Positions 2,211 through 24,552 of a stretch of 64,000 nucleotides of DNA are shown here, one piece after another. This DNA comes from Candidatus Nanopelagicales bacterium (lineage in GTDB: Bacteria > Actinomycetota > Actinomycetes > S36-B12). Below the pieces are notes generated by a model. The model did no database searches, was not told the origin of the DNA, and saw nothing but the letters and a program-made list of their open reading frames with translations. Location of the stretch: the NCBI GenBank assembly GCA_017854795.1, contig JAFMHB010000001.1:3753-67752 (forward strand), read 5' to 3'. Made by a program: the position numbers and the translations under genes. How positions within the stretch are numbered: the first letter of the stretch is position 1; each line of letters opens with the position of its first letter.

Positions 2211-2596
2211 TGAGACTGAATGGCATCAGAGGGTATGTGCCCCAAATGGCCGGCTTGGAATTTTTCCACGAACTAAATGACCTCAGTTTTATTGCTCATA
2301 ACAAATGGTCCATGTCGGAAGGTTGGTTGGCGCCAGGGAGCACCACGAATGAGGAACACATCTAAATTGGGGGAGCACGACTCTTGAAAATCGGCAGCGC
2401 GCAATTTCACGGTGTCACCATCGACCAAAATCACCTTTTCACCTCAGACCCGTCACTAACATTGGATGTCTGGACCCAACTACTGATAGAGATACGGAGG
2501 CCTTGAGTCATTTCAATAAGCGTACCGACGGCGCATGAGTGCAGCAAAAATGGAGTTTCAAGAACCTTGATGCAGGAAAAACCGGAATGTTACTCG

Positions 2597-2669
2597 TGGC
2601 CCCGGCATGATTCGAACATGCGACGCACGGTTTAGGAAACCGACGCTCTATCCCCTGAGCTACGGGGCC
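2597..2669 (-). tRNA. tRNA-Arg (anticodon CCT)
   Basis: Hand-folded 73-nt cloverleaf: acceptor GGCCCCG/CGGGGCC, D-arm GCTC-AGGGGATA-GAGC, anticodon arm CGGT-TTCCTAA-ACCG (U27-U43 mismatch), T-arm GCATG-TTCGAAT-CATGC, discriminator A. No encoded CCA. Confidence 0.9.
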
Positions 2670-2889: not shown

Positions 2890-4452
2890 TTAGCCAGCGG
2901 CTGAGTCGGGGATTTGTTTTCGCCTTAGTTGCTGGTAAACGAGGTTGTGTCCTATTAAGTAGCCGAAGACCCAGGCTTCTTTTGATTCCAATGACCAGCG
3001 TTGGAGTCGTTTAAAGGGAAGCATGTCATCGATGATGGAGTGCATGGCTTCAGCTGTTTGACGTAAGCCGTATATTTCCTTGAACTCTTCGCTGTCGGGT
3101 GCGTGTGGTTGTAGGTAACGAAGCATGTTGTCGTAGCCTTCATCACCGGCAATTTCGATCCCGTCCTTGCTCGTGCTCAGGGCGGACTTGCGACCGTTCC
3201 AAGCGACGCGAAGCATGTTGTTGGTTCCTGGAGAACACCAACAGGTGTAAGGGTGTTCCGTGTAGTGGAAGACGCGTCCATTTTTTTGTCGTTTAGGTCT
3301 CTGGTTGTGATGCAGCGGCAGGTAATTGCTATTCCCATTCACATCGGTCACGGCCAAGTGGAGTCGCTTTAAGATCGCAAAGAATCTTTGTTCGTGTCCG
3401 CATTCTGGGGTTGTGGTTCCAATGAATTTTGGTTTGCGGTAGTGACTTGAATCATCCGAAGTCCGGTCCATTGTTGCCCTAGTAGCAAGCACCATTCCTG
3501 CGCCGTTGAGTGTTTCCTGTTCCTTTCTGCCGGCCGCTCGGTCATAGGCAAGCAGGGATGCGGAGGCACCCTGTTCTATGAGGCGCGCTTGGACTTCGAG
3601 GGTGAGTTTGAGTGCGCTGCTTGCCTCGATTTGAGGGGAGGGCGAATTCACGTAGGCGGCACCGAGTGCGATCGTGTCATGTTTGTTAGGCCCTGGGGAC
3701 CAAATAATGGCGAATTTTGTTCCATGTGTGGATTCGCCACCGCCTTCGGAGTGAGTTTGAGCAACACCATCAATGTGCCTCTGCCGGATTTCCCCGGTGT
3801 ACATGTCTACCACTTCATCTTGCGTGTGTGAGGTGGCTGCCTTGAGGGCTGTTCCGTCTCCAATCATCATGTTCTTTGATGAATAAACCGTGTTCCTCTG
3901 GGAGAACCTTTCGTCATCTAATGACAGCATGACTCCCTGTTGTTGTAACAAGTCTGATTGGTTAATGCCTCGCATTTTTAAGCCACGAAACAGTCTGCTG
4001 ATTCTGCTGGCGCTTGGGCTTTTTGGAGCTGCTATCCAATTTGTGATGCGGACTTGGTCATCAGGTGCAACGGTGGGTAGTGCGTCTTGCAGCCTTTGTT
4101 TGATTAAGGGTAAGTAACTATCAAACAACAATGCTCGGGAGATAGCTGACTGAGAAGAAAATGCGTTTTGTAGCGCGTATATCAACGAGAAGAGTTGGCG
4201 TGGGTAAATACCGGGTGAACCACCTTCGGGTCGAGTGCCCATCATGATGTGATCAAGAAGGCGGTAACTGTCAGGATTCGTAAGTATTAAGTTGAATCGA
4301 GCCAAAGGGTCAGTGCGCAGGTTTTTGGAAGGTCCTGTTTTTTGAGAACGCTTGCCTGACTGCAAGGACATACGTGTCACGCGACCATCAGAGAGACGCA
4401 CTTGATCGGATTTTTCGTCGATACGGATGATTGTGATTTCAGTATCGCTCAT
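2890..4452 (-). CDS. IS4-like DDE transposase-like protein (~520 aa)
   Basis: Start moved to ATG 4452 (ATGA overlap with the upstream stop). By-eye DDE layout: 'MIGDGTALK', 'LLAYDRAAGR', then 'YGLRQTAE' = Y-x2-R-x3-E followed by 'GYLIGHNLV'. No terminal IRs found. Confidence 0.5.
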   Translation of the reverse strand: MSDTEITIIRIDEKSDQVRLSDGRVTRMSLQSGKRSQKTGPSKNLRTDPLARFNLILTNPDSYRLLDHIMMGTRPEGGSPGIYPRQLFSLIYALQNAFSSQSAISRALLFDSYLPLIKQRLQDALPTVAPDDQVRITNWIAAPKSPSASRISRLFRGLKMRGINQSDLLQQQGVMLSLDDERFSQRNTVYSSKNMMIGDGTALKAATSHTQDEVVDMYTGEIRQRHIDGVAQTHSEGGGESTHGTKFAIIWSPGPNKHDTIALGAAYVNSPSPQIEASSALKLTLEVQARLIEQGASASLLAYDRAAGRKEQETLNGAGMVLATRATMDRTSDDSSHYRKPKFIGTTTPECGHEQRFFAILKRLHLAVTDVNGNSNYLPLHHNQRPKRQKNGRVFHYTEHPYTCWCSPGTNNMLRVAWNGRKSALSTSKDGIEIAGDEGYDNMLRYLQPHAPDSEEFKEIYGLRQTAEAMHSIIDDMLPFKRLQRWSLESKEAWVFGYLIGHNLVYQQLRRKQIPDSAAG

Positions 4453-5495
4453 GACAAAACCCGGGGTTGGTATAGGGGATTCTTGATTTTCGCGGGATTT
4501 ATCACTCCGCGCCAATCTAGATCAATAGCGCGTGCTGCTGCGTCAAGAGAAGCGGAGCCGAGGAGTTTTGCAACGTCGATGATGCTGGAGCTTTGGTCAA
4601 AAACTGTGACACCGGCCCAACGTTGGAAACTCGCCGGTTTTAGTCCTAGGTCGTTCGAGTAGCCGGAAACATTTAATATTTGCGCGAGTGCCATCGCGGC
4701 CCCTGCTTGGCGCGAGGCTTCTTTACCGTTTCTTTGAATAACAAACCCAATGTCGCTGGATCCACCCGCGCAGGTGAGTGCCGCGTGGCGATGTGAGATG
4801 ACGTCGTACTCCCAATCACCTGCAATTGCGACACGTCTTTGTTTGATGTGTCGACTACCGGGAAGTAAAAGTGAGCCGTCACTTAAGTCAATGTGTTTTA
4901 GTTTTATGTTGCCAATGTCAGCGGTTCCTGCGCCACAGAGGCCAAGAGCAACGGCACTTGCCAGGCGTGTTTCTAGATAACTGAAAGCCACACTCCGGCA
5001 ACGATCAACCTCACATTCGTTTAATGCGCGTCCTTGCCTGCGGATATCTGATCCATCGCGACCCTCATACCTCGGCATGACGGATGTAGCACCGAATGTT
5101 TTTGCTGTTGCATAAAGAGCGCGCACGGCGCAGGAGCGTAAATGTCGAATAGCGATTGCAGGTGTGCCTAAGCGACCACTTCGATCCCGCCCTGCTGCGC
5201 AGAGCCACTGTTCAAATAACTCCAATGCGGAGTCAAGTGTTGTGAAACCTTGAGCATGCGTGAAGTTGATGTATTGCTCTACTAATCCGCGATATCGGTG
5301 AAACGTTTGTTCTGAGAGGTCACCGGAGTTGACATCAGCACTCCACAGTTCCACGACCGTGAGCAGAACTTCACGTGAGTCAAATGATTGTGGATCAGGC
5401 ATGTTTTTGAGCACCTGATGCCTGCCGCGAGCTGAAGGCAACTCCCACAAGGTGAATGCGCACTGTTGAAAACGTGAAAGGGAAACCATGGTCAT
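4449..5495 (-). CDS. tyrosine recombinase (phage-integrase fold)-like protein, possibly catalytically degenerate
   Basis: SAM-like N-domain pattern ('TFHRYRGLVEQYINF', 'IRHLRSCAVRALY'). C-domain layout ('ALGLCGAGTADIGNIKLKHIDLSDGSLLLPG..RRVAI', 'PASFQRWAG', 'LLGSASLD'). Several catalytic positions appear substituted. Confidence 0.55.
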   Translation of the reverse strand: MTMVSLSRFQQCAFTLWELPSARGRHQVLKNMPDPQSFDSREVLLTVVELWSADVNSGDLSEQTFHRYRGLVEQYINFTHAQGFTTLDSALELFEQWLCAAGRDRSGRLGTPAIAIRHLRSCAVRALYATAKTFGATSVMPRYEGRDGSDIRRQGRALNECEVDRCRSVAFSYLETRLASAVALGLCGAGTADIGNIKLKHIDLSDGSLLLPGSRHIKQRRVAIAGDWEYDVISHRHAALTCAGGSSDIGFVIQRNGKEASRQAGAAMALAQILNVSGYSNDLGLKPASFQRWAGVTVFDQSSSIIDVAKLLGSASLDAAARAIDLDWRGVINPAKIKNPLYQPRVLS

Positions 5496-9269: not shown

Positions 9270-9368
9270 ATTTCTATCGCCCCTACATTTAATGGGTCGC
9301 GTGCAAACACTCAGTGACCGACTGCGACCGCCAGACCCGCTTGTATGGTTTCAATAAGGGAGGCCCTC

Positions 9369-11617: not shown

Positions 11618-11887
11618 ATGGCTGGTCGAAAGAATCATTCGCCGGAGGAGATTGTGCGGCTTTTGCAGCGCTTTGATGAGGTTCTGGCCCAAGGTCTCAC
11701 GGTAGAGCTCGCAGACGGGGAAATAGGCATCAGTGCCCCCACGTATCACAATTGGCGGCAACGCTACGACGGGATGAGTATTGATGACGCGAAAAAGCTC
11801 AAGGAGTTACTCGCAAGGAACGCGAAACTCACACGCCTCGTCGCAGACTCCGAGCTAGAAAAAATTGATGCTCAAGGAGATCGCTAA
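11618..11887 (+). CDS. IS3-family transposase OrfA (HTH)
   Basis: 'RKNHSPEEIVRLLQRFDEVLAQGLTVELADGEIGISAPTYHNWRQRY' plus a leucine-zipper-like tail. Paralogue at 14707-14965. Confidence 0.75.
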   Translation: MAGRKNHSPEEIVRLLQRFDEVLAQGLTVELADGEIGISAPTYHNWRQRYDGMSIDDAKKLKELLARNAKLTRLVADSELEKIDAQGDR

Positions 11888-11893
11888 GGGAAA

Positions 11894-12653
11894 ATGCAAT
11901 GCTTGATGAGTCCAATAGCCAAAATGTCGGGCCGTTCTGTTGCTCCAAAAAAATTCGGAACATCAGAACGGTTCACGTGCAACGTTGCTGGGCTACCCAG
12001 ATCAACGAACCGCAGACCGCTTAAGTGTGAAACACCGACCGATCCTGACCGATGGCTGCGCACGCATTTATGTACATGGGCAGGCATCTCGCGAAATGCC
12101 CGTAAGGGTTACCGCAGGGCCCAGTACGAGCCCAATCACGACCGCTGACGCGCCGAATGTGGTGTGGGCGATTGACTTCCCATTCGATTCCATGCGTTGC
12201 GGAACGCTAGTGAAGCTCGCGTCCATGGTTGATGAGCATACCTGTGAGTCAATCCTTGACATGACCAACCGTTGGATAACGAGCGAGAAAGACATCGACA
12301 AGGTAGAGAAAATCATTGCCCATCGCGTAGCACCCCTGGTGCTGCGGTGCGACAACGGGCCCGAATTCACTTCCCACGCCCTCAACGAATTCGCTGCCCG
12401 CCAGCGTGGCATTCACTACATTCCACTAGGTCAACCCTGGTGCAACGAGTACTTGGAATCTTTCAAAAATCGTGTGCGTGACGAGTGCCTGAAATTGAAT
12501 ACCTTCGACCACATTTACGAAGCACGCGCTATCGTTGGCGACTGGAAGGAGGACTACAACTGTTACCACCGGCACTCAATGCTGGGCTACCTAACGCCCA
12601 ACGAGTGTGCTCAGAACTGTAAGTGCATACACAATTCAAAAACTCTCAAATAG
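11894..12653 (+). pseudogene. IS3-family transposase OrfB (integrase core), frameshifted and internally shortened
   Basis: The N-terminal piece 'SERFTCNVAGLPRSTNRR..GYRRA' is in the orfA frame after a TAA. The DDE core 'VWAIDF', 'LRCDNGPEF', 'NEYLESFKNRVRDE' is in another frame (11940-12653). Confidence 0.7.
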
Positions 12654-12730
12654 CGTGGACCTAATAATGGGGTCCTTTCAGCTGGTGCCACTCTATTGCA
12701 TCATGGCATAACTGATGTCACAATCCACCT

Positions 12731-13141
12731 ATGATGAAGAGGTCACCCATGGGATCGAGGCGGTCCACCCGTCTGGGCATCGTGGTGGCAGTCGTCATCG
12801 GAATTATTGGCATGCATCACATAGTGGTCGTCATGTGTTCCACTCCGGCCGACATGGCAAGCATAGATGTTGTAGAGAGTCATGCTCATGCCCCACACGT
12901 CAGTCAAGAAGCACCCGAAGTGTTCCAGGGGACCGCGGCCCAAACTCCCGCGGATTCTGATCTTCATCCAAGCCTGGTTCATTTATGTCTGGTCATTGCC
13001 ATGGGACTGGCACTATTTATGCCGACAATTAAGGCTCGTCACCTACCATGGAATAGGCGTGAGTTGAATATAGGTCGCGGTCAGCTTTTCGACCTGCGAG
13101 CACCACCGCAAAAGGATCTCCTCTGTATTAGTCGAACATAA
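12731..13141 (+). CDS. small His-rich membrane protein (hypothetical)
   Basis: TM 'LGIVVAVVIGIIGMHHIVVV', 'ESHAHAPH', second TM 'LVHLCLVIAMGLALFM'. Sits directly upstream of the DUF305 gene. Confidence 0.4.
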   Translation: MMKRSPMGSRRSTRLGIVVAVVIGIIGMHHIVVVMCSTPADMASIDVVESHAHAPHVSQEAPEVFQGTAAQTPADSDLHPSLVHLCLVIAMGLALFMPTIKARHLPWNRRELNIGRGQLFDLRAPPQKDLLCISRT

Positions 13142-13207
13142 AAGGAACGGTCACCACGTTTCTCGAGGCTTTCATGCCTCACATTCAACTATTTACAGGA
13201 GATTTTT

Positions 13208-14569
13208 ATGTCTATATTTCGTTCAGCAGCACACAAAATTTCAACAAAGTCACTTCTCATTTCAGTGGCGTGCACCATCACGATGCTTACAGCCCTCACT
13301 ATGACCGGATGTTCATCGCAGGACTCAACCGCGAAGACTCCTGCTCAGGTTGCAGGGCAGGTGTCTGAAGAAACATTTTCCGCTTTAGACTTCATGTTTG
13401 TCCAAATGATGATTCCTCACCACGATCAAGCAGTACAAATGGCCAGCCTGGCCACCAGTCGAGCACTCAACCCGCAGATCAAAGATCTCGCAAATCAAAT
13501 TTCTGCCGCTCAAAAATCAGAGATTCAGGTGATGGAATCATGGTTGATGTCAATGGGCGTCACACAAATGCCTGAGCTCGATTCACTAGGCGCCCATGCA
13601 GGGCATATGGACGGCGTGCTTACAGAATCCCAGATGGAGACATTACGTCAGGCAAGTGGTCGAGAATTTGACCAACTCTTCGGAGAATTCATGATTGAAC
13701 ATCATTTGGGCGCAATTTCCATGGCCCAAGATGTTTTGAAACAAGGAACAAGTCAAGGAGACCCCGCAGTCAAAGCTCTCGCGCAGTCAATAATTGGCGA
13801 TCAGGAAAAGGAAATTGTCCTGCTGAAGTCCATGATTAGAGCGAGTGAAAAACCAGCTCGTACCGCAATTTCGCCGGCGCTAAGTCACGTCCACGATGCA
13901 GTCGTCAGCGGCGATTCAATATATATCGGTACCCACAGCGGGATACATCGAGTTGATATCCCAACTGGCAGTTCTGAACTAATCGGCGATTCCAAGGATG
14001 ACTTTATGTCGCTTGCAGGTCAGCCCGAAAAAGTACTGGTTGCCAGCGGCCACCCAGGAGTTGGTTCTTCATTATCAAACCCCATTGGGCTGGTCAAAAG
14101 CGCGAACCAAGGATTGACTTGGGAGAGCATTAGTTTAGAGGGCGACGTTGATTTCCATGCACTAGCGATTAATGAAAATCAAATTGTGGGCTGGGACACT
14201 AGGGGACCCTTGCTTTGGTCACAGGACGGTGGCCAAAGCTGGACAGATGGGCCATCGGTGCAAGCCATGTCAATAGTCTGGTTTCAAGACACAGTCTGGA
14301 TCACAACCCCGGACCAAGGTCTACTCAAATGGAACCCTGGCGACATGACCACTGTTTCAGTTGGCCTGCCTGCAGTTTTGCTTTCCACGTCGCCGAAGGG
14401 CGATGCAATCTGGAGGGTTGACGCAGATGGCAGCGTGCATCGAAGTCTCGACATTCAATCCTGGACACAAGCAGGTTCTTTGAAAGAAATTGAAGCACTT
14501 GCTGCCGAATTCGACCATGCATTCGCGGTCACTCCGCAATCATTTCAACGGCTATCGCTGGACAACTAA
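13208..14569 (+). CDS. lipoprotein: DUF305 (four-helix, His-rich) domain fused to a BNR/Ycf48-like beta-propeller
   Basis: Lipobox 'LTMTGC'. Two DUF305 half-motifs, 'MMIPHHDQAVQMA' and 'FMIEHHLGAISMA'. C-terminal BNR-type motifs 'SANQGLTW' and 'SQDGGQSW'. RBS aggag 7 nt upstream. Confidence 0.75.
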   Translation: MSIFRSAAHKISTKSLLISVACTITMLTALTMTGCSSQDSTAKTPAQVAGQVSEETFSALDFMFVQMMIPHHDQAVQMASLATSRALNPQIKDLANQISAAQKSEIQVMESWLMSMGVTQMPELDSLGAHAGHMDGVLTESQMETLRQASGREFDQLFGEFMIEHHLGAISMAQDVLKQGTSQGDPAVKALAQSIIGDQEKEIVLLKSMIRASEKPARTAISPALSHVHDAVVSGDSIYIGTHSGIHRVDIPTGSSELIGDSKDDFMSLAGQPEKVLVASGHPGVGSSLSNPIGLVKSANQGLTWESISLEGDVDFHALAINENQIVGWDTRGPLLWSQDGGQSWTDGPSVQAMSIVWFQDTVWITTPDQGLLKWNPGDMTTVSVGLPAVLLSTSPKGDAIWRVDADGSVHRSLDIQSWTQAGSLKEIEALAAEFDHAFAVTPQSFQRLSLDN

Positions 14570-14649
14570 ACTCGAGTTACCTTCAAACATAAGAGCCGTC
14601 GTCATAAGAGCCGCTGTGCATTATCTGGATGGCATCACCCCTTACGGTA

Positions 14650-14965
14650 GTTCCCCATAATTTGAGAGCCTGAGTTCGCCTTGTGTGGTGGGAAGACTCG
14701 GTTGTTATGGCAAGTAGGAAAAATCATTCTCCTGAGGACATTGTCCGGTTGTTGCAGCGTCATAATGAATTGCTGGGAAAAGAACTTACCGTCGAGTTGG
14801 TGTGCCGTGAGGTGGGTATTTCAAGTCCAACGTATTGCACGTGGCGGCAGCGTTATGTCGGAATGAGTGGTGATGACGGGCAAGGAACTCAAAGAGCTAC
14901 GTGCCCAGAAAACAAAGTTGAAACGGCTCGTTGTGTTAACGCTCATCCAAAATTAGGCCATTTTT
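14650..14965 (+). mobile_element. truncated IS3-family remnant (left end plus frameshifted orfA only)
   Basis: The left end ttccccataatttgagagcc and the 5'UTR are homologous to 11561-11617. OrfA 'MASRKNHSPEDIVRLLQRHNELLGKELTVEL..PTYCTWRQRY' then loses frame. No orfB or right IR. Confidence 0.7.
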
Positions 14966-15156
14966 GATCAGGTGGTTTCAAGCGGTCGTCGCAACTTTGC
15001 TAGATCGTCAACAGTTGAGAGAAACGCCTCGAAATTCATTAGTGACAGGACATGGAATTTAGTTCTCGATTCAAATGACGCGATTGGCGACGTTTAAAGG
15101 CCAAAACTCTTGTCGACTGCGTGTTTTGGCTAGTTTTCACCGCAGATTGATAACCG

Positions 15157-15308
15157 AGTTTTCATTATCGCCCGAATAATTTTCATTTTGGAATGTTGAT
15201 GGGGGAGAAACCGCACTGGATTTCCCTCACAAAAAGGGGTTATGCACAAGCCCCCGGGGCCTGGGGGTGTGTGAAGAACTTAGTGCATAACCTTGTGCAT
15301 CTCCAAAG
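15157..15308. repeat. att-like direct repeat, copy 2 (~140-bp arm plus 38-nt core)
   Basis: Core 15255-15292 matches 2663-2700 at 35/38. The ~100 nt to its left is homologous to 20614-20710. IR ggttatgcac (15238-15247) / gtgcataacc (15283-15292). Confidence 0.8.
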
Positions 15309-15805
15309 TTGAGTTGCGCTGGGTGGCCTGATCCCTTTCCGAAACGCAAATATGCCTTCTGTGACAGCGTGGCCTGTTCGGAATCGACAGCAATTACGTT
15401 TACGTCCAGTGCATGAAGGAATGCGTCGAACGCGCCTGGTCGACGCGAATCCGGGCGACCATCTGCTCGTCGTCACCCATTCACCCACGGCTGCGATCGC
15501 TCAGGCGACCTTCAAGGGTGAGCGCGGCCATCCGGTGCGCATCTCGCGTGAGCTGTGGGACGAGGCCATCGATGTCGCACGCGGTGATGAGGGAGTAACG
15601 CGGCTGATTCGTGGACGAGACGACGTCGCCGGGGGCGACGACATTGACGTGCTCTGACGTCACCCGCGCTCAATGATCGCAAGGAGATCAACTACCTGAC
15701 GCGCTCTCCAGTGAGCGCTCCGCGGATTGTCGGCCACTCGCTGTCATGGAGCAACGGGAGGCCGCTGAGGATGACCCTTGATCGGTCAGCAGGCAGCTCT
15801 ATTGG

Positions 15806-17590
15806 TCACCTCCGGGGTGCGACCTTCACCTTGATGTAGGACACCTCGCCAGTCGTCGGATCAGTGATCGTGAACGTGTACGTCCCCTTGCGAGTGAGCG
15901 TCATGACCGGCAGCTGCGCCAGCCCGTCAGCATCAGCCACCGTCGCCCCCACGGACACATACCCATCAGACGTCTTTACCTGCACCGAGTAGACAACTCC
16001 CGACGTCAGACCCGAGGCGGCCAGCGACACCGGGGTGCCGACCGTGGCCGGCACCTTCGGTGCACGCCCGATCCTTGGCCCAGGAGCCTTGTTCATCTTT
16101 CGTGTCGGAGTCGCGGCGGCCACCTTCTCTCCCACCAGCACCACACCCGGCGTCACAACCTTGGGCGTCACCGGATTGTTCGGCACCCCCACGACCACCG
16201 GAACCTCAGACGAATCAGCACTGTCCATTGCATCCGTTCCTGCATCATCGGCCGTCGTCTGCGCCACGACAGGTGTCACCGCCGGTGTCGTCTCACCACT
16301 GCTATTCGAGTCCGGCGTCGGAGTGGGCGCCGGAGTGGGCGCCGGAGCAGGAGTGGGCCATGCGTACACGCGTACAACTCCGTTATAGGTGTACGCACCA
16401 CTTGTCGCATAAGGGATACCCATCGCCACGGTCTCCCCGTCAGCAGACAATGCAACCGACCATCCGGCATAATCACCCTTCGCACGAGTCAGATCAGTCC
16501 CCACCTGCGTCCACGAACTGGCCACGAGCTCAAAGACCTGCACCTGCCCGGCATATGCATTGACCCCGATCGCGCCGATCGCAAGTGTTGTCCCGTTGGC
16601 AGACATTGCGATCGAATAGCCGAAGGCAGCACCCGTTGCGCCATCGATGTTGGCACCCAGTTGTGTCCACGAGCCCGACACCAGTTGAAAGACCTGCACC
16701 TGCCCGGCATATGCATTGACCCCGTCAGCGCCCACCGCCACGATCGTTCCATCCTTAGACAGCGCCACGGACCGGCCGAAACTGCCGTTTGCAGCAGCAG
16801 TTATGTCAGTGCCCACCTGCGTCCACGAACTGGCCACGAGCTCAAAGATCTGAACGCGGTTGAGGTTTACACCACTTGATGGAACTCCCACAGCCATGAC
16901 CGTCCCGTCGGAGGACAACGCCACTGAGGTACCTAGAAAGTCATCGGTCTTGGCGCCATCGATGTTGGCACCCACCGGCGTCCACGAACTGCCCACCAGC
17001 TTAAAGGCCCGAACTTGCCCCACCCTCGTATCGGGCGAGCGGTCCTTATTTGGAGCGCCGACGGCAAGCGTCGTCCCGTCCGCAGACAACGCCAACGAGG
17101 CGCCGAACTGATCCTTGTCGGCCAGGCCGGTGATATCCGCTCCTAGTTGCGTCCACTTATCCGACCCAAACTGGAACACCCGGACCAGTCCAGGCTTAAG
17201 CTGTCCGGACTGTGATGCGCCCACAGCCATGATCGTCCCGTCGGCAGACAACGCCACTGAAGAGCCGAACTTGTCTTTGGTGGCTGTGCCATTGATGGGG
17301 TCGCCCAATTGCGTCCAAGCCCCGGACACGTAGCCATAGGCACGGACCTGACCAGCGCCCCCTCCGGCGGCTATTGCGCCCACAGCCATGATCGTCCCGT
17401 CGGCAGACAACGCCACCTTGTCTCCGAACTCGTCGTAGTCGCCCCCACCGGCCACTTCAGAGGCCAATTGAGTCCAGTCATCCACCGACGCCGCGTGCAC
17501 AGGGCCATTGACAGCCCCGGCACCAAACGCGACCACCATGGCCGCACAAACACCGATTGTGATCGTCTTTGCCCTGCGTAAGAAATCCAT
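15806..17590 (-). CDS. secreted FG-GAP-like 7-bladed beta-propeller protein with Pro/Thr linker and C-terminal Ig-like domain
   Basis: Signal peptide 'AAMVVAFGAGAVNGPVHAAS'. Seven repeats of 'FGxSVALSADGT(I/T)xAVGA'. Linker 'PTPAPAPTPAPTPTPD'. Confidence 0.75.
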   Translation of the reverse strand: MDFLRRAKTITIGVCAAMVVAFGAGAVNGPVHAASVDDWTQLASEVAGGGDYDEFGDKVALSADGTIMAVGAIAAGGGAGQVRAYGYVSGAWTQLGDPINGTATKDKFGSSVALSADGTIMAVGASQSGQLKPGLVRVFQFGSDKWTQLGADITGLADKDQFGASLALSADGTTLAVGAPNKDRSPDTRVGQVRAFKLVGSSWTPVGANIDGAKTDDFLGTSVALSSDGTVMAVGVPSSGVNLNRVQIFELVASSWTQVGTDITAAANGSFGRSVALSKDGTIVAVGADGVNAYAGQVQVFQLVSGSWTQLGANIDGATGAAFGYSIAMSANGTTLAIGAIGVNAYAGQVQVFELVASSWTQVGTDLTRAKGDYAGWSVALSADGETVAMGIPYATSGAYTYNGVVRVYAWPTPAPAPTPAPTPTPDSNSSGETTPAVTPVVAQTTADDAGTDAMDSADSSEVPVVVGVPNNPVTPKVVTPGVVLVGEKVAAATPTRKMNKAPGPRIGRAPKVPATVGTPVSLAASGLTSGVVYSVQVKTSDGYVSVGATVADADGLAQLPVMTLTRKGTYTFTITDPTTGEVSYIKVKVAPRR

Positions 17591-17638
17591 GGATCAGAAA
17601 CTAGTCGTCCATTTAGACGCCTTCACGTCAAAGTGGGG

Positions 17639-18319
17639 CTACCTTGACGTCGGCTCCGCAGTGCCGGGTCGACCGGCCCATTCAATGAACATCCGCGCGG
17701 CCGTCACTCGCATGTTGACTGCCGGATCAGTCTCGAGGCCCAATGCAACGAAGATGCGGTTCAGGATGTGCTCAACGGCTCCGACTGTCGAACCACGACG
17801 CTCCGCGATCTCTGCGTTGCTCAGCCCCATGGCCACCATCCGCAGGACCTGCACCTGGGTGGGAGTCAAGGACGACAGTCCATTGGAGGTGGACTCAGCA
17901 CCTGCAGCGGAATTCTTGTCGTGTGAATCGCTAAGGACGGTCTCTAGAGCCTGAAGGACTACGGCAGCATCGTTCACGTCCGACTTGCGCAGGTAGAGGG
18001 CGCGCTCGAACCACCTCTTGCGGTAGTCCGAGGTGATCTCGTAGTTGGAGAGGATTACTACTCCGAGGTAGGGCGCCTCCTTCGTCAGCGAAACGATGAG
18101 GTCGAGACCACTGACACCGCTGCCCAAATCAATGTCACAGAGGATTGCATCTGGATCGAACCGAGGAAACTCCTGCACCGCAGTGCTGGCACCGGCGACA
18201 GCTATCACGTCAAAGCCGGCGGCCGTGAGCATGTCTTTCAGCATGGCACGGATGAGCCCCTCGTCCTCCACCACCAGGACGCGGCGGGGCGGCACCGTGA
18301 CTTTACTCAACGACGTCAT
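17639..18319 (-). CDS. NarL/LuxR-family response regulator
   Basis: Start set at ATG 18319 ('MTSLSKVTVPPRRVLVVEDE'). Receiver Asp in 'ILCDIDL'. HTH 'LTPTQVQVLRMVAMGLSNAEIAERRGSTVGAVEHILNRI'. Confidence 0.8.
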   Translation of the reverse strand: MTSLSKVTVPPRRVLVVEDEGLIRAMLKDMLTAAGFDVIAVAGASTAVQEFPRFDPDAILCDIDLGSGVSGLDLIVSLTKEAPYLGVVILSNYEITSDYRKRWFERALYLRKSDVNDAAVVLQALETVLSDSHDKNSAAGAESTSNGLSSLTPTQVQVLRMVAMGLSNAEIAERRGSTVGAVEHILNRIFVALGLETDPAVNMRVTAARMFIEWAGRPGTAEPTSR

Positions 18320-20093
18320 TGTTACGCCCCCCTGTCGTCGCCAGCAATGTTCGGAGCACCGTACCGGCCTCGGAGTCCCGTCGAGTCCACTCCAGACATG
18401 TGTCATCGAGAAGTCTCGTCCCGGCGCCGGGGGGCCCTTGGCCCATCAGGCCATCCCCGTCGTCCGCCACGACGATGACGAGGTAGGGGCCTTGAACGGA
18501 TAGATTCACATCGACCCGATCCGCGGCCCCAGCACGAACGGCATTGACGATACCCTCGCGGACGATCTCCACAGCAGCCAGTGCCAGAGAGGGATCGCGC
18601 TCGAGCGCTTCGGATGCCTCGTGCGCCACCTCCACACGTAGATCGATGGAGAAGCCCCAGACATCACCCATGTCTTGTAGTGACGTGCGCCAGTCGGCTG
18701 GGTTGGTCTCACGAAGTCGAACGCGGATTCGTTCACCTAGGTCGCGGAGAAGCACCTCCTGATCGCACTGTGGATCATTCACGATGCGGAGAGCAGCTGC
18801 CACCAGTTCCGACTGCACTGCTCCATGCACGCGCACGCCGAGGCTTTGCCGCTCGAACCATGCTTGGAGATTGAGTTCCGCCGTGAGTTGGCCCACGGCT
18901 TTCAGGGTGGCCTGCAGCTGCTCCTCCGCATTGCGCCACTGCCGAGCCCCAGCGAGTGCGACTGGCGGGCCCACAATCCAGACTAGAACGAACAGAGCTG
19001 ACCGAAGGGTCGAACCGAGACCGACCGCCTGCGTCACTTCATCAGGCACACGCGACGCGATCAGAGCCGTGGAGGTGACAGCCGCTGCAGAGGCTGCGAT
19101 CACCCAGGCGGCCACAATCAGGGTCGATGCCGCACGCGGATGCTGCGACCACGTATCTGGGACGTAGATGCGATCTGCCAGTCCCAGAATGGCCCAACTG
19201 ATGGCCGCCATCGTTATTCCCGCTAGAACACCATTCACGATGCCGAACTGGTTTCTTGCCGTCAGGCTGATCCAGACGAGGATCAAGGTCGCTGACATCG
19301 CAGGTGAGAAAGGGCAGTCCCGCAAGACCGCCCACAAGCCGCCGAACGTCGATCGGACGGCACCCATCGCATCGGTCCTGTCGATCACGAGGGTCACCGA
19401 TCCCGGCGTCATCAACTCACGCCCCAGCGGCCGCACGACAGACTCTGCCAGTCGGGACAGTTTCTGCGACGTGACTGCATCCGACGTGCCTCGCGTGTCG
19501 GCGATGATGGTCGCCAACTCGACCTCGACTGTGTCCTGCACACTGGACAGGAGCTCATCTCGATAGGCATCAATGGCAGTCAGAGTCTCCCTGCCGAGGG
19601 CCCTTTCACGCGCCAGTTCGTCCTGCAGGTGCTGCTGCGCGTCGCGGTGTCTGCGATATCCGTCGACGACCAAAGCCGCCATGGCCAGCAGTGCGGCGCT
19701 GGCCAGCGTTGTGGTGGCAATTCGGTCGACCCAGCCATCCACGGGAAGTCCCCACCACGCATTGCCGAACTGGACAACCGACGCACGGATGGCACTCGCC
19801 AGGACGAACGTGGCAACAGCAAGCACGGGTCTGGGCTGCCGATCACCGGGTCTCAGATACGTCAACCAGGCCAACCACAGGACAAGGCCCAAGGCCAACT
19901 GTCCCACGATCCTGATCAGGAACCAGGTTGCCACGGCAGAGGGAACGTGGTTCGAGCTTGAGATCGCCTCGATATCCGCCGTCGTTGGCAGCAGAGCGAA
20001 GGCGAACATGAGCAGCCACGCTGGAAGCGAAACGGCGTTGGGGCCACCCACGCGCCACCACGGTACGCGCAGCGCTCCTGCCCTTAGCACCAT
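18303..20093 (-). CDS. multi-TM sensor histidine kinase, paralogue of 447-2210
   Basis: Same layout as 447-2210: TM block, coiled segment, TM block, 'RVHGAVQSEL' H-box-like, 'VREGIVNAVRAG', 'VVADDGDG'. Confidence 0.7.
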   Translation of the reverse strand: MVLRAGALRVPWWRVGGPNAVSLPAWLLMFAFALLPTTADIEAISSSNHVPSAVATWFLIRIVGQLALGLVLWLAWLTYLRPGDRQPRPVLAVATFVLASAIRASVVQFGNAWWGLPVDGWVDRIATTTLASAALLAMAALVVDGYRRHRDAQQHLQDELARERALGRETLTAIDAYRDELLSSVQDTVEVELATIIADTRGTSDAVTSQKLSRLAESVVRPLGRELMTPGSVTLVIDRTDAMGAVRSTFGGLWAVLRDCPFSPAMSATLILVWISLTARNQFGIVNGVLAGITMAAISWAILGLADRIYVPDTWSQHPRAASTLIVAAWVIAASAAAVTSTALIASRVPDEVTQAVGLGSTLRSALFVLVWIVGPPVALAGARQWRNAEEQLQATLKAVGQLTAELNLQAWFERQSLGVRVHGAVQSELVAAALRIVNDPQCDQEVLLRDLGERIRVRLRETNPADWRTSLQDMGDVWGFSIDLRVEVAHEASEALERDPSLALAAVEIVREGIVNAVRAGAADRVDVNLSVQGPYLVIVVADDGDGLMGQGPPGAGTRLLDDTCLEWTRRDSEAGTVLRTLLATTGGRNNDVVE

Positions 20094-20416
20094 GCGAGGC
20101 TAGCCGCTACCTGCGATCCCGTCCAGTTACCGTGCACGTGACCGGCGCGACCGCCGAGCAGCATCACGCCGACGACGGCCATCATGATCGTACCCATCCC
20201 CACACCCACCATGGCCTGGTGCGTCGCGAAGGGCTCTCGCTCCCGGCACAGCGGCACGGTCAGCGCGAGGAGAAGTAGGACGGGGAGAGCGAAGCCATGG
20301 CGAGCCGATGGGGTGCCGGTGCTTTCTGCGATTTCGGCACCCACGACTCTCGCTGTTGATCTCGTCTGTACGACAGATCTCACCCTTGCCGGGTTCGTGC
20401 GCAACTCTGGTTTCAC
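20084..20416 (-). CDS. possible small 2-TM membrane protein upstream of the kinase (weak)
   Basis: Hydrophobic stretches 'FALPVLLLLALTVPL' and 'MVGVGMGTIMMAVVGVMLLGG'. 10-nt overlap with the HK start. High-GC DNA makes spurious ORFs likely. Confidence 0.25.
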   Translation of the reverse strand: MKPELRTNPARVRSVVQTRSTARVVGAEIAESTGTPSARHGFALPVLLLLALTVPLCREREPFATHQAMVGVGMGTIMMAVVGVMLLGGRAGHVHGNWTGSQVAASLAWC

Positions 20417-20613
20417 TCTCTACAGCGGTGCGCATCGGGTCAACCTGAACGACTCTTAGCAATCGATGGTCGCAGTCCACTTGTGACTGCTAGTGCTCTC
20501 GTGGGTCCAGTGTTTCCTTTCACTACTGGAGTTCGAGTCAACTTGACGCGACCAACGCGTGGTACCGGGATTTCACTGGTGGCGGCGCGTGTGTGCTGCG
20601 AGAGCGTTCATAC

Positions 20614-20763
20614 AGTTTTCATATTTGGGCAAGAAATTTTCACATTGGACAGTTGATGGGCAAAATGGCGTTTCGAATTCCCCCACAAAAAGGGGTTATG
20701 CACACACCCCCGGGGCCGAGGGTGTGTGAAGAACTTAGTGCATAACCGAATGCTCAACTCCAG
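20614..20763. repeat. att-like direct repeat, copy 3 (~140-bp arm plus core)
   Basis: Core 20711-20747. IR ggttatgcac (20694-20703) / gtgcataacc (20738-20747). Inner 9-bp IR cacacaccc (20701-20709) / gggtgtgtg (20720-20728). Confidence 0.8.
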
Positions 20764-20819
20764 GTGCATTGCAAGCGAGATTTCCTGATCGGGGTGTTGG
20801 AGGTGAGGCCTGCGGCATT

Positions 20820-20852
20820 GAAGGTGGAAATTCGAAGGTGGAAATTCGAAGG
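20820..20852. repeat. tandem 14-bp direct repeat (2.3 units)
   Basis: gaaggtggaaattc gaaggtggaaattc gaagg, read directly. It lies between repeat copy 3 and the amidohydrolase gene. Confidence 0.9.
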
Positions 20853-21083
20853 CCACAGTGCATCCTCTGGGTCAACTGTCCAAGAGGACATGCCACAGGT
20901 GATCGTTGACAGTGTCTCGTCGAGTATCCATTTAATATCCCACATAAAGCGTGTGGTCGCAGGCGAGTTTGGTCAACCATGGATTTTCTTTAGTTTTCCA
21001 GTTCAAGGGAACAAAGACCATAGACTTTGAGTCGAGCGAGTATGGGAAGGTGTGATACCACCGCCCATCGGGAAAGGATGAAC

Positions 21084-22805
21084 ATGGCAACTGATCTGAT
21101 TCTTAAAGCTGCATCCATCATCACGATGGAAGATGAACTCCCGCGAGCAGAGGCGATTGCCATTGACACCTCAACGGGGGTGATCACGGCGGTTGGAACG
21201 CTCGCTGTTGTGCAGGCGACTGCGCCAGGTGTTGCGGTGACCGATCTGGGAACAGATGTGCTGATGCCTGGTTTTGTTGATCCACACAACCACCCAGCAC
21301 TAAGTGGCTTAGTGACCCAGGCACCTGCGCATTGGATTGCACCGTACGTGGGATACCCGACCTACGCCGATGTGCAGGCCTTGTGGAAGCAACTCGATGC
21401 CTCAACTCCTGCAGGGCAGGCATTAGTATTCGCCGGCCTTGATCGGCTGCTTCAAGGAGCGCCTGAGTTGAATAACACTGACCTCGATGCATTCTTCCCG
21501 TCGCGGCCCGTGATCGTTATTGATAACTCAGGGCACGAGAGCTACTTCAACACTGCGGTATTCACATTAAATGGCTGGACGGATAACAAGCCCCCAGCCG
21601 ACCCGGTCGGTTCACATTTTGGTCGCAACCCCGATGGTACGTCGAACGGGCGCGCCTACGAGACGGCAGCAACATTGATGGCGGCAAACAAGGTGTTTGC
21701 AATTGCAATCCCGCATCCGTTGTTATCGGTAGCGCGATGGCTGGCAGAGATGTCGAGCAACGGAATAACCATGACTTCCGAGCACACATTTAAGGGCGAC
21801 ATGTTGGCGGCGTATTCAGCATGCGTGAGCGTCACCAACAGCCCAATTCGCATCGCGCTCTACCACATGTCAATTGAATCGGACTGCGGTGAAAAGATCA
21901 CCTCACCGAACCCATCGATGCTGTGGAAGCAGGGCATCAAGTTGTGGGCTGACGGATCGCCTTGGGTGGGTACCATCGCCGCCTCATTCCCATACCTGGA
22001 TTCGCCCGTTGTTCAGCATGCACAGATCCCCCTGGGTCCGGGGGGAGAGGCCATGATGAATTACACGAGAGCCGAACTCGATCAGGTGCTTGCTACGCAC
22101 GCAGCACAGGGTTGGCAATTCGCCTTCCATGTAAATGGCGACGTTGGACTCGACATCGTGCTCGATGCATATGAGCATGCATTGGTCACAAACAACCTGA
22201 TGGGTTTGGATCACCGCTGGCGCGTTGAACACGTCGGTGCCGCTCGAGGAGATCAGTTTGAACGTGCGGCCGCACTAGGGGTGACCATCTCGATGCTCCC
22301 TGCGCAGTTCATCTATTGGGGTGATCTCCTAGATGGGCAGATGTTCCCTCCCGAGATCGGCAGCCAATGGATGCGGGCAGGGGATGCCTTCCGTTCGGGT
22401 GCGTTGGTCACCTTCCACAACGACGGATTTGTCAGCCCACCGATCCCTCTTTTAAATATTCAAGCCATGACCACTCGTCGAAGCGCATCGGGCCAAGTAC
22501 ATGGCCCGAAGCAGCAGGTAAGTCTTCATGATGCATTCCGTGCGCACACAATTAATGCAGCTCGTCAGCTTTTCCGCGATCAAGATCTGGGATCTATCAA
22601 GGTTGGCAAGCTCGCCGACCTGGTTCAACTCTCTGCCGATCCGTACGCGGTTGATTCAGACAAACTCACCGAGCAGGTGAACGTGCAGGCAACTTGGGTG
22701 AATGGCACCAAGATCGATACCAATAAGTTCGTTGCGAACATTGAGGCCATCGATCCCAGTGAGCACCAACACCTCCCTCAGGCGGCGCTCTCGCACACCT
22801 GCTGA
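21084..22805 (+). CDS. amidohydrolase-family (Amidohydro_3-type) metal-dependent hydrolase
   Basis: 'LMPGFVDPHNHP', 'FHVNGD', 'RVEHVG', 'TFHNDG'. Start ATG 21084 (or 21078) behind ggaaagga. Confidence 0.75.
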   Translation: MATDLILKAASIITMEDELPRAEAIAIDTSTGVITAVGTLAVVQATAPGVAVTDLGTDVLMPGFVDPHNHPALSGLVTQAPAHWIAPYVGYPTYADVQALWKQLDASTPAGQALVFAGLDRLLQGAPELNNTDLDAFFPSRPVIVIDNSGHESYFNTAVFTLNGWTDNKPPADPVGSHFGRNPDGTSNGRAYETAATLMAANKVFAIAIPHPLLSVARWLAEMSSNGITMTSEHTFKGDMLAAYSACVSVTNSPIRIALYHMSIESDCGEKITSPNPSMLWKQGIKLWADGSPWVGTIAASFPYLDSPVVQHAQIPLGPGGEAMMNYTRAELDQVLATHAAQGWQFAFHVNGDVGLDIVLDAYEHALVTNNLMGLDHRWRVEHVGAARGDQFERAAALGVTISMLPAQFIYWGDLLDGQMFPPEIGSQWMRAGDAFRSGALVTFHNDGFVSPPIPLLNIQAMTTRRSASGQVHGPKQQVSLHDAFRAHTINAARQLFRDQDLGSIKVGKLADLVQLSADPYAVDSDKLTEQVNVQATWVNGTKIDTNKFVANIEAIDPSEHQHLPQAALSHTC

Positions 22806-22891
22806 TTCCTGCACGGCTGAATCATGTCCACACCCATCAGTGGCTAATGGCCATGCCGCGAGGATTTAACTCGGCTACATAATCTTCGCGG

Positions 22892-23545
22892 TTAGTCGTC
22901 CCGAGCGTCCGAAACCTGAGTGGGCAGGGTGGGTACCTGCCAGCCGAGAGTGACGGCACCGAGTCGAATAATGAGGGTGACGGAAACGCCGACTAGGAAT
23001 GGAACCCAGTCACCGAAACTTTGGGTGAGGAGGAATGCCACGGAACCGGCGACCGCGGCTAATGCGTAAACCTCGCCATCGAAAATCGAGATGCGAATTC
23101 CCGCGATTATGTCGCGGATAATTCCGCCGGCAATTCCACTAATTACACCAAGAACAACAGCGGGTCCGTAAGAAAATCCTGCATCACGAGCTATGTCGGT
23201 ACCCACGATTGTGAAAGCCGCTAGTCCAATGGCGTCGGTGAAGAGAAATACGTGTCCCATCCAAGCTCTGTGACGTTGCCAAGGAAAAACTCGCGCTGCA
23301 ATCCAGACCACCACAACCGTAATCGCAATCAGAATCACCGTGGGCCAGAAGTCGACCAACCAACCAGGGGTTTCGGTGATAAGAAGGTCTCTCAAAGTCC
23401 CACCACCAATTGCGGTGACAGCGGCTAATGTCGAGACTCCCAACCAGTCCATGCCAGCTCGCGCACCTGCGACGGCACCGGAGGCGGCGAAGGCAACTAT
23501 GCCCACCACGGTCATGATAAGTAATGGCAAAGGTAGTTCAAGCAC
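22892..23545 (-). CDS. UPF0126 / TRIC-type (Pfam 'Gly_transporter') membrane protein
   Basis: Duplicated 3-TM halves carrying 'GGGTLRDLL' and 'AGGIIRDII'. GTG start. Confidence 0.75.
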   Translation of the reverse strand: MLELPLPLLIMTVVGIVAFAASGAVAGARAGMDWLGVSTLAAVTAIGGGTLRDLLITETPGWLVDFWPTVILIAITVVVVWIAARVFPWQRHRAWMGHVFLFTDAIGLAAFTIVGTDIARDAGFSYGPAVVLGVISGIAGGIIRDIIAGIRISIFDGEVYALAAVAGSVAFLLTQSFGDWVPFLVGVSVTLIIRLGAVTLGWQVPTLPTQVSDARDD

Positions 23546-23742
23546 GGTGACACTCTTTCAGGTTCTCGCACAATTGCAGGGTGTACGCCACGAGCAACTA
23601 CCCGGACTTACTTGCTTTTTGGTCGGAGTGAGTGACCTTGGCCCAGGCGGGCACAGGAATCTTGCGGTAGTCCCGTGCCGAGAGCCCTCTCCGAAACGGT
23701 AATAAGGCTGCCCAGTACAAGTGGCAGGGCTAACTCAAAGTC

Positions 23743-24552
23743 TTATCGAGTGAAACCACCGTGAGCCTCGACCACTGAACCATTCAATGAAGCGCCATCC
23801 AATGAACAACAGAAAGCAATTGTTTTCGCAATCTCGGATGGCTGGAGTAATCGTTGTACCAGTTGTGCAGATGCAAACTCTTGTGGGTCGCCTATTCCAT
23901 ATATTTCAGCAGTTGCGGTAAGCATGGGGGTTTGTGTGGAACCGGGGGAGACAGCTACCGCGGTGACGCCTGTGCCAACGAGGTCGGCGGCCAGTCCGCG
24001 GACAAGACCTACGACAGCATGCTTTGCCATTGAATACGCTGCCAATCGGTGAAGCCCACGTGTCCCGGCTACCGAGGCGATGCCGACGAATCGACATCCA
24101 CTTGGATCGGGGCCGTTGAGCATGTGTGGAATCACAGCGGCCGCTGTGTTCCACACTCCGATCACATCAATGTCGAGCAGAGTTTTGACGTGGGTTTCTG
24201 GCGTTTGCCAGAGTGCTTCCCCTCCACTGATCACCGCGGCTGCGGCCACGGCTGCATCAAGTCGCCCGAATGTGCTGACAGCCAGGTCGGCGACTTCAAT
24301 CATTTTTGCGCGATCACGGACGTCAACAACTCGTGCAATCACTTGACCTGGGTGCTCATCTTGCAGACTCATGAGTTCGTCTGTCTCGGCCAATGAGTAC
24401 GCAACACCCGCATAATCTGATGTTTCGCTGCCCACGCATGAATCGATAGCTAGCACTCTGAAGCCATCGCTGCACAGTGCTTCGACGGTGGCGCGCCCAA
24501 TTCCACGCGCCGCCCCGGTGACCAGCGCCACCCGCTCAATGTGATTCGTCAT
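23743..24552 (-). CDS. mycofactocin-coupled SDR-family oxidoreductase
   Basis: 'ALVTGAARGIGRA', 'YSMAKHAV'. ATGA-coupled to the end of mftE. Confidence 0.75.
   Translation of the reverse strand: MTNHIERVALVTGAARGIGRATVEALCSDGFRVLAIDSCVGSETSDYAGVAYSLAETDELMSLQDEHPGQVIARVVDVRDRAKMIEVADLAVSTFGRLDAAVAAAAVISGGEALWQTPETHVKTLLDIDVIGVWNTAAAVIPHMLNGPDPSGCRFVGIASVAGTRGLHRLAAYSMAKHAVVGLVRGLAADLVGTGVTAVAVSPGSTQTPMLTATAEIYGIGDPQEFASAQLVQRLLQPSEIAKTIAFCCSLDGASLNGSVVEAHGGFTR

Follow-up and report, generated by a model that had tools for sequence, protein, structure and literature searches.

At the 5' end of a tRNA-Arg(CCT) gene in a Candidatus Nanopelagicales genome (assembly GCA_017854795.1, contig JAFMHB010000001.1), we found a segment of DNA that is probably the distal unit of a two-unit array inserted at the first base of the tRNA gene, a unit that carries no mobility machinery and brings with it a fragment of a foreign chromosome. 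The unit occupies positions 15262–20710 of the stretch analyzed here, the window, which is 64,000 nucleotides (nt) long and numbered from its first letter; a larger island, island 1 (2670–15254), lies between the unit and the tRNA gene. The host is a Nanopelagicales-type freshwater or estuarine actinobacterium. An initial annotation, made from the sequence alone, had described this region as a GC-rich, recombinase-less island at 15293–20747, encoding a small membrane protein, a kinase, a LuxR-type regulator, and a secreted propeller protein and depending on its neighbor for mobility. The features of the region are collected in Table 1.

The fragment carried by the unit, hereafter the block, differs in composition from its host. 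It extends over approximately 15,470–20,400, a narrower interval than the one first proposed, and has a guanine-plus-cytosine (GC) content of 0.624, compared with a mean of 0.535 (standard deviation 0.019, maximum 0.567) in 198 windows of the same size elsewhere; the GC excess that had been perceived by eye is thus confirmed, with a z score of 4.6. In 1-kb windows, GC is 0.61–0.63 at 16–20 kb, 0.48–0.54 in the left 15 kb, and 0.50–0.58 in the right 43 kb, with steps at ~15,430 and ~20,400 (150-nt resolution), and the position of the block is also the strongest tetranucleotide outlier in the window. Codon usage, which the initial annotation had proposed to check together with sliding-window GC, agrees: GC at third codon positions (GC3) is ~0.70 (0.69–0.73 in the four open reading frames [ORFs] of the block) versus 0.45–0.60 in 23 genes elsewhere. 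GC3 is therefore raised, as claimed, although the statement that third positions are almost all G or C was too strong. The long shadow ORFs reported on both strands are there and are abundant. Both borders of the block are crossed by unitigs from four metagenome runs at a depth equal to that of the flanks, and an independent contig from the Joint Genome Institute (JGI; L008, the same as L014) matches 15700–24179 at 99.2% identity, indicating that the junctions are not assembly artifacts.

We traced the block to a chromosomal locus of higher-GC Nanopelagicales. In the Ca. Nanopelagicales metagenome-assembled genome (MAG) L009/L010 (GC 0.655), the native locus is chromosomal and free of any repeat, with the gene order PpoB2 (DUF2182), histidine kinase, response regulator, a 505-amino-acid (aa) secreted protein, a convergent mobA-like gene, xdhC, moaE, moaA, moaD, coxG, and coxMSL. 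Amino acid identity to the L009 orthologs is 62% for the kinase, 84% for the regulator, and 67% for the tail of the secreted protein. Contig L002 (GC 0.67), which is 89–92% identical to the window at the DNA level, has the secreted-protein gene beside an intact mobA-xdhC pair. At the left edge of the block, DNA homology to both L002 (89%) and L009 (77%) ends at 15470–15472, inside mobA, leaving the last ~60 codons of that gene; at the right edge, homology to L009 reaches 20251, inside PpoB2, and only residues 41–91 (nt 20144–20296) of the ORF at 20084–20416 are homologous, to the C-terminus of DUF2182/PpoB2. Because homology ends inside mobA and PpoB2 and both stumps are still attached, the block is a ~4.9-kb cut-out of such a locus. 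What had been taken for a designed cassette is instead a random cut-out of a chromosomal locus, accompanied by a remnant of a PIN-domain gene that stands between the GC-rich block and the left repeat, and the small two-transmembrane peptide proposed at its start turns out to be the DUF2182/PpoB2 stump joined to unrelated residues. The suspicion that the block is foreign, by contrast, can now be given an origin: judging from these homologies, it was imported from a higher-GC Nanopelagicales lineage into a host of ~53% GC. The predicted lack of an integrase or transposase is also borne out, since everything from 15470 to ~20300 (kinase, regulator, secreted protein, and the two stumps) is explained by homology to the native locus in L009 and the remainder of the unit is too short for a recombinase.

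The left edge of the block varies among metagenomes. A contig from run X6 follows the window to 15468, where it switches to 30 nt matching moaA of L009 (16464–16493) at 100% identity; at this breakpoint, window positions 15442–15468 share GACCATCTGCTC with moaA, which may reflect either a very small piece of moaA in inverted orientation or a site at which recombination recurs. We considered whether this contig restores an intact PIN gene, which is ruled out by its running into moaA-like sequence. In run X14, a seawater contig joins 15399, in the PIN remnant, to 15806, the stop of the secreted-protein gene, skipping the mobA remnant, and unrelated sequence replaces the core of the repeat.

The boundaries of the unit are formed by repeats tied to the tRNA gene. 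Three copies lie in the window, at 2663–2722, 15157–15314, and 20613–20769. Copy 1 abuts the 5' end of tRNA-Arg(CCT), whose first 7 nt read CGGGGCC on the plus strand (2663–2669), and this heptamer recurs at every unit junction. In four Nanopelagicales-type MAGs (L003, L004, L006, and L007), the conserved sequence immediately preceding tRNA-Arg(CCT) is the core of the repeat, GGGGGTGTGTGAAGAACTTAGTGCATAACC. A right arm of ~100 nt lies to the left of copies 2 and 3 and ends in ...GGGGTTATGCACACACCCCC followed by CGGGGCC; its conservation is 79–88% over ~136 nt. Read inward, both ends of the unit open with GGGGGTGTGTG...CATAACC. The right subterminal region is common to the unit and island 1, whereas the left subterminal region is not shared, and the left end of the unit is a variant of its own, distinct from copies 1 and 3. 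The presence of the heptamer at all three junctions fits a target-site duplication and, equally, the overlap region of a recombinase.

The same arm and core bound unrelated cargo at other loci: a 2.2-kb, one-gene island without a recombinase in L004, formamidase/AmiS genes in L005, and the metagenome contigs L012 and L013. In L016 and L017, the right arm abuts the left end of elements carrying an int-like/DDE-like gene pair, which indicates that tandem arrays recur elsewhere. A right-arm pattern search of metagenome contigs returned five loci, one of them a chance match (L011, GC 0.39). Viral contigs contained no arm, and their sole core match was a chance one in a 31%-GC contig, providing no link to phages. 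The tRNA site itself carries other genes in L003, L004, and L006, and in L003 the homolog of the host's glycine transporter (83% aa identity) is just 2.5 kb from the tRNA, with other small genes between; the site is thus hypervariable. The possibility, raised at the outset, that the block is conserved in relatives does not hold, as relatives that share the tRNA lack the block at that site. The unit thus has the features of a tRNA-linked additive island, namely abutment to a tRNA, presence or absence among relatives, and deviant composition.

To view the site in natural populations we used Logan contigs of 14 metagenomic DNA runs, in which rare variants are dropped. Run X3, from an estuary, contains a unitig of 58 nt (depth 20.4) in which the tRNA-Arg is followed directly by the copy-3 variant of the core (GAGGGTGTGTGAAG...), and the occupied junction is present at depth 11.6; both run into the same amidohydrolase flank. 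The former junction is likely the empty site, which places the insertion at the heptamer and hence at the start of the tRNA. The alternative allele in X3 loses both islands together, which is compatible with gain or loss of a composite. Across runs, the shares of sequence words from the two islands are partly uncoupled, although divergence and low depth confound the comparison: X10, X11, and X17 have block shares of ~0.23–0.36 and are not holders of island 1, and X25–X29 have island 1 at 0.30–0.49 and are not holders of the block.

These observations can be arranged into a history in which the copy-3 core would be the original sequence upstream of the tRNA. The unit described here would have been the first to insert, at base 1 of the tRNA, and would have supplied an upstream region of its own; island 1 would have followed at the same point. 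A ~4.9-kb fragment of a higher-GC chromosome, cut inside both neighboring genes, would have been joined to the PIN remnant next to the left end. Encoding nothing for its own movement, the unit is unable to move alone; any movement would presumably depend on the neighbor's DDE-like enzyme and its dead integrase-fold partner, acting in trans on the ends of the unit or in cis on an 18-kb composite.

We characterized these two candidate mobility proteins of island 1 in greater depth. The 541-aa protein, the sole candidate for a catalytic enzyme in island 1, matches DDE_Tnp_1_6 with an E value of 0.0078, below the cut-off, and has no NCBIfam match. The 348-aa protein belongs to a family with 25 homologs, in which 4 of 22 members have a Phage_integrase Pfam match. 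A PDB sequence search with the 348-aa protein alone found no match; profile and fold searches revealed an integrase fold, and its AlphaFold2 (AF2) model (predicted local distance difference test [pLDDT] score 83.5) matches XerA, XerD, IntI, Cre, and lambda Int in Foldseek. In a HMMER alignment with XerA, however, the Arg-I position is occupied by an invariant Thr, the two His positions by Ala or Ser (His-I) and by Ser or Thr (His-II), and the position of the Tyr nucleophile by Ala, indicating an integrase-fold DNA-binding protein rather than an active recombinase. The two proteins are found together repeatedly, with cargo that varies. None of the nine island-1 ORFs of at least 232 aa that were scanned against Pfam contains a relaxase or type IV secretion system (T4SS) domain. 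The initial annotation had the unit depend on the neighbor's machinery; by these results, the neighbor is not an integrative and conjugative element (ICE) or integrative and mobilizable element (IME) with an integrase.

Several observations weigh against the proposed history. Evidence for the likely empty site comes from a single 58-nt unitig in a single run, X3, and the unitig depths there do not sum exactly (20.4 + 11.6 versus 17.1). Neither the joint 15261->20718, expected for an excised unit, nor the joint tRNA->15262, expected for the unit without island 1, was found in the contigs of the 14 DNA runs, and no circular form of the unit was seen in them; as Logan contigs drop rare variants, the missing excision joints are weak evidence. 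The left end may be non-functional, because only ~36–45 nt of family sequence are kept there and the PIN remnant follows directly. The DDE-like status of the 541-aa protein comes from one weak Pfam match. Finally, the arm is not always an island boundary: in L015, a right arm stands alone 45 nt downstream of tRNA-Ser(CGA) (8640–8718; 80% identity over 80 nt, 27 nt identical), beside the housekeeping genes lytR_C, upp, and pntAB on a 59%-GC contig, with no CGGGGCC and no left end within 6 kb. Separately, we had considered tRNA-like loose ends at 15255 as joints of the unit alone, but these turned out to be copy-1-type contigs of other strains on the shared core.

The alternative that best survives this evidence, and which we regard as possible but unlikely, is that the unit is a fossil within what is, or has come to behave as, a single 18-kb composite island (2670–20710). 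Copy 2 would then be an old accretion scar, the GC-rich piece would have entered later by illegitimate or homologous recombination, perhaps following the uptake of a relative's DNA, and the 5.4-kb unit would neither have moved in the past nor move in the future with this cargo. Such a fossil would fit the loss of both islands together in X3, the failure to see any junction of island 1 only or island 2 only, the shortness of the left end, and the patchwork of its left side (PIN remnant, possible 27-nt moaA-like piece, mobA remnant), which points to repeated illegitimate joins. It fits poorly with the partial uncoupling of word shares between the two islands (X10, X11, and X17 versus X25–X29), with the left-end variant of the unit, which differs from those of copies 1 and 3, and with the recurrence of machinery-less units bearing the same arm in L004 and L005.

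A classical cis-mobilizable element (CIME), whose attL and attR sites would be recombined by the tyrosine integrase of an ICE or IME at the same tRNA and which would be carried along by conjugation, is improbable. CIMEs, as ICEberg 2.0 (PMC6323972) presents them, are recombinase-less units in tandem accretion with ICEs, an example being CIME-L3catR3 with ICESt3 in Streptococcus thermophilus. The unit resembles them in having no integration or transfer genes, in sharing repeats with a gene-carrying neighbor, and in its tandem placement at a tRNA-linked site, a layout that matches CIME accretion as described there; moreover, the 7-bp spacer CGGGGCC between inverted 11-nt arms (CACACACCCCC / GGGGGTGTGTG) resembles the core site of a tyrosine recombinase. 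The only nearby integrase-fold protein, however, lacks Arg-I, His-I, His-II, and Tyr, relaxase and T4SS domains are missing from the nine island-1 ORFs scanned, and the site is the 5' start of a tRNA, which receives its new upstream sequence from the unit, an uncommon arrangement for integrases. Also unlike CIMEs, the unit has an eroded left end, which makes intact attL and attR sites doubtful, its cargo is a raw chromosomal fragment with stumps, and no excision was observed. The earlier proposal of a CIME dependent on its neighbor therefore stands as regards the lack of machinery and the repeats common to both islands, and fails as regards an active integrase or ICE. As island 1 is not a cognate ICE or IME partner with an active integrase, we do not class the unit as a CIME, and the resemblance is an analogy in layout.

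It is more doubtful still that the repeats are duplicated tRNA-promoter, terminator, or regulatory modules of the kind seen in repetitive extragenic palindromic elements, with the foreign block arriving independently. The core is indeed the conserved upstream region of tRNA-Arg in every relative, and the L015 arm stands alone beside tRNA-Ser and housekeeping genes. Against this, arm plus core marks a switch between unrelated gene contents in six independent loci, and the likely empty and occupied junctions in X3 differ exactly at the heptamer. A structured RNA gene at the repeats was considered and dropped: the folds of five arm-plus-core copies are no better than those of shuffled sequences (z -0.1 to -1.2), and a search of 14.9–21.1 kb against Rfam matched no family, the one sub-threshold snoRNA match being treated as chance. 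That the block is native to the host core genome or an assembly chimera at the repeats is highly improbable: repeats could mislead assemblers, and a distant paralogous regulator-kinase pair lies left of the tRNA, but unitigs of four runs and the independent JGI contig cross both junctions at equal depth, the neighboring genes are truncated, relatives lack the block here, and GC3 is 0.70 versus 0.45–0.60.

Two side observations concern the repeats themselves. In the freshwater metagenome X10, a 92%-similar variant of the right arm and core (window 20616–20717) occurs at a unitig depth of ~309, and tRNA/core unitigs exceed 1200; very abundant organisms therefore carry the element family, or its end at the least. 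Just beyond copy 3, at 20820–20852, the 14-nt tandem repeat gaaggtggaaattc is polymorphic, with contigs from X3, X4, and X7 lacking one unit and having an extra G after 20885.

Returning to the machinery-less unit at the tRNA, its cargo is an intact operon of three genes, all on the minus strand as the initial annotation had it. The multi-transmembrane (TM) kinase that was recognized there has, by hydropathy, four TM segments, a cytoplasmic helical region of ~140 aa, another three to four TM segments, and then the H-box and ATPase domain. Its HATPase_c score of 19.6 is below the cut-off of 26.4, but the sequence shows a recognizable H-box (HGAVQSEL) together with N, G1, and G2 boxes. The kinase family comprises 725 clusters at E<=1e-10, nearly all of them full-length, and has no family name; close relatives are few. 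The regulator, likewise identified correctly as LuxR-like, scores 51.5 bits for Response_reg and 25.9 bits for GerE, both above their cut-offs; its start is Met30 of a longer ORF, and it overlaps the kinase stop by 17 nt. By these domain assignments, the pair has the features of a NarL/LuxR-type two-component system. A distant paralogous pair, in the order regulator-kinase rather than kinase-regulator, stands directly left of the tRNA (window 2–2210): a regulator fragment at 2–463 (26% identical to the L009 regulator) and a kinase at 447–2210 (24% full-length, with the same 4+4 TM layout).

The secreted protein had been described as a seven-blade FG-GAP propeller with a PT linker and an Ig-like tail, an architecture that our analysis supports, the tail being a beta-sandwich. 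The gene contains seven DNA repeats at 156–171-nt spacing, and the FG-GAP_2 score is 85.6 bits against a cut-off of 23. The protein consists of a signal peptide, the propeller (residues ~40–412), a disordered PT-rich linker (415–506), and the beta-sandwich tail (510–594). The AF2 model has an overall pLDDT of 75.7, with the propeller mostly above 85, and the best PDB matches of the propeller in Foldseek are integrin alpha X, M, 4, and V, with E values down to 5e-15; as modeled, this is a closed seven-blade propeller of the FG-GAP, or integrin-alpha, type. FG-GAP_2 propeller surface proteins of bacteria include many proteins of Bacteroidota sorted by the type IX secretion system (T9SS). The protein resembles such surface proteins in its seven FG-GAP_2 blades, its ~40% identity to their propellers, and its integrin alpha fold; unlike them, it has a propeller flanked on one side by an actinobacterial signal peptide and on the other by a PT linker and beta-sandwich tail specific to the lineage, it carries no T9SS or LPXTG sorting signal, and it would be under a dedicated two-component system.

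Comparison with orthologs shows the mosaic nature of this protein. What it shares with the L009 and L002 orthologs (67–91%) is confined to the signal peptide and the final 170 residues, and the propeller replaces their unrelated middle part, which includes an immunoglobulin (Ig)-like module (QTVSWAPxNT...GTCQVQA). That module is also found in the single island protein of L004, a 592-aa ALTTAQ-repeat protein (L004 3580–5358) that is the sole gene of the 2.2-kb machinery-less island at the same tRNA. In runs X10, X11, X14, and X17, island-borne variants at 96–98% identity lack the propeller segment 16333–17407; they keep the left junction (core, PIN remnant, mobA remnant, and tail), depart from the window no later than 16333, and return to it at 17407 or 17535; they thus have a different middle domain. 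Some strains have a second, diverged propeller gene in tandem (L008 8459–9335, equal to L014 1–877), with the joint 17803->15700 in X3, X4, and X6: past 15700 there is a repeat of approximately the last 170 nt of the regulator gene and of the start of a new propeller gene, with 95% identity over 412 nt and divergence thereafter. A search of genome contigs with a protein pattern for the propeller protein returned no match. A constant signal peptide and tail with an exchangeable middle fits a surface-exposed, strain-variable binding protein.

The synteny of kinase, regulator, and secreted protein is kept across 62–99% identity, which suggests that the two-component system most likely controls the adjacent secreted protein. 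In two metatranscriptomes, contigs match the propeller and kinase genes at 99–100% identity and leave the repeat regions uncovered; the operon thus appears to be transcribed in nature, although contigs measure expression poorly and DNA carry-over is possible. A scan of the block for promoters and terminators gave results at or below chance level.

Table 1. Features of the unit and its surroundings (window coordinates)
Feature	Position	Strand	Evidence or remarks
tRNA-Arg(CCT), anchor of the array	2596..2669	-	ARAGORN; alignments
Candidate mobility module of island 1: 541-aa weakly DDE-like protein (2890–4515) and overlapping 348-aa integrase-fold protein (4449–5495)	2890..5495	-	Pfam, AF2, Foldseek, HMMER
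Right end of island 1 ("P arm")	15157..15254		79–88% identical to 20613–20710 and to the arms of L004, L005, L012, and L013
Junction heptamer CGGGGCC, copy 2	15255..15261		Same 7 nt as at the start of the tRNA
Left end of the unit, TGGGGGTGTGTGAAGAACTTAGTGCATAACC(TTGTGCAT), matching the conserved tRNA-Arg upstream region	15262..15300		~36–45 nt kept
PIN/VapC gene remnant, residues 46–103 of 129, both ends cut	15278..15451	-	59% aa identity to L009 PIN, E 1e-23
3' remnant of MobA-like NTP_transf_3 gene	15470..15657	+	Weak Pfam match, profile positions 108–158 of 160
Secreted protein, 594 aa	15806..17590	-	Pfam FG-GAP_2 E 2.5e-24; AF2 and Foldseek; metatranscriptome contigs
Response regulator, 226 aa, REC and LuxR/GerE helix-turn-helix	17639..18319	-	Pfam; gene call in L008; 84% aa identity to L009 ortholog
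Histidine kinase, 596 aa	18303..20093	-	Weak HATPase_c and NarX/UhpB matches; hydropathy; 62% aa identity to L009
110-aa ORF with C-terminus of DUF2182/PpoB2	20084..20416	-	59% identity over 51 aa to L009 PpoB2
Spacer, lower GC, origin obscure	20420..20612		GC profile; matches same-species contigs only
Right end of the unit ("P arm"), terminal ...GGGGTTATGCACACACCCCC, hairpin, two GTGAAAAT-type repeats 21 nt apart	20613..20710		Alignments
Junction heptamer and copy-3 core (GAGGGTGTGTGAAG...)	20711..20747		Joined directly to the tRNA in run X3

Elsewhere in island 1, a 110-nt direct repeat (11598–11707 and 14687–14796, 75% identity) lies beside an rve (IS3-type) transposase gene (11940–12653); the two copies are insertion sequence remnants bracketing a DUF305 gene. 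In run X4, a contig of 1693 nt spans the DUF305 region (12894–14585) with 107 differences and a depth of 160, compared with ~14 for the flanks; a related DUF305 gene therefore resides in a much more abundant organism.

Two further known systems invite comparison. The islands GI2–GI4 of Planktophila are additive, tRNA-flanked flexible islands of Nanopelagicales (PMC12817590, citing Neuenschwander et al. 2018). The present unit shares with them the order, the tRNA flank, additivity, strain variability, and cell-surface-related cargo; what differs here is that the boundaries are resolved to the base, the end sequences are defined, several units stand in series, and the cargo is traced to a higher-GC sister lineage. 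Tn6022-like Tn7 elements use an inactivated tyrosine recombinase, TnsF, as target selector (Faure et al. 2023, PMC10293859). By analogy, the partner element here would pair a transposase-like protein with an integrase-fold protein lacking catalytic residues, at one precise site where arrays can form. Unlike in Tn6022-like elements, TnsA/B/C and TniQ were not found, the 348-aa protein lacks the zinc-finger N-terminus of TnsF, the target is the start of a tRNA and not comM, and the unit itself encodes none of these proteins. Additive tRNA-flanked islands (PMC12817590) and recombinase-less tandem units, that is, CIMEs (PMC6323972), are already known. The novelty lies in a combination of features: insertion at the 5' start of a tRNA, units ended by arm and core of which several are machinery-less, a dead-integrase partner, and cargo traceable to a higher-GC sister locus. 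Much of the mechanistic novelty lies in the neighboring mobility module, which is a separate finding.

A broader interpretation, which we put forward as speculative and rather doubtful, is that in Nanopelagicales-type actinobacteria the start of tRNA-Arg serves as a platform for cassettes, much as an integron does. Units that have a common right arm and a left end carrying the presumed promoter of the tRNA would be stacked there by a DDE-like enzyme, with a dead integrase as its guide; most units would, like the present one and those of L004 and L005, be machinery-less, and they would be mobilized in trans, shuttling raw chromosomal fragments between lineages that differ widely in GC. Genes for surface proteins, together with their regulators, would often be among these fragments.

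Few freshwater bacteria are as abundant as the Nanopelagicales (acI and relatives), whose strains differ mainly in a small number of flexible islands, some of which are tRNA-flanked. The locus described here shows freshwater actinobacteria swapping surface-protein cassettes; it does not show self-mobility of the unit. With base-resolved ends, a shared end sequence, a likely empty site, and traceable cargo, it makes gene capture across lineages directly testable. Within the cargo, the exchange reaches the level of domains, a propeller replacing a lectin/Ig-like middle in a secreted protein under what would be a dedicated two-component system, and surface variation of this kind would be expected under pressure from phages or grazers.

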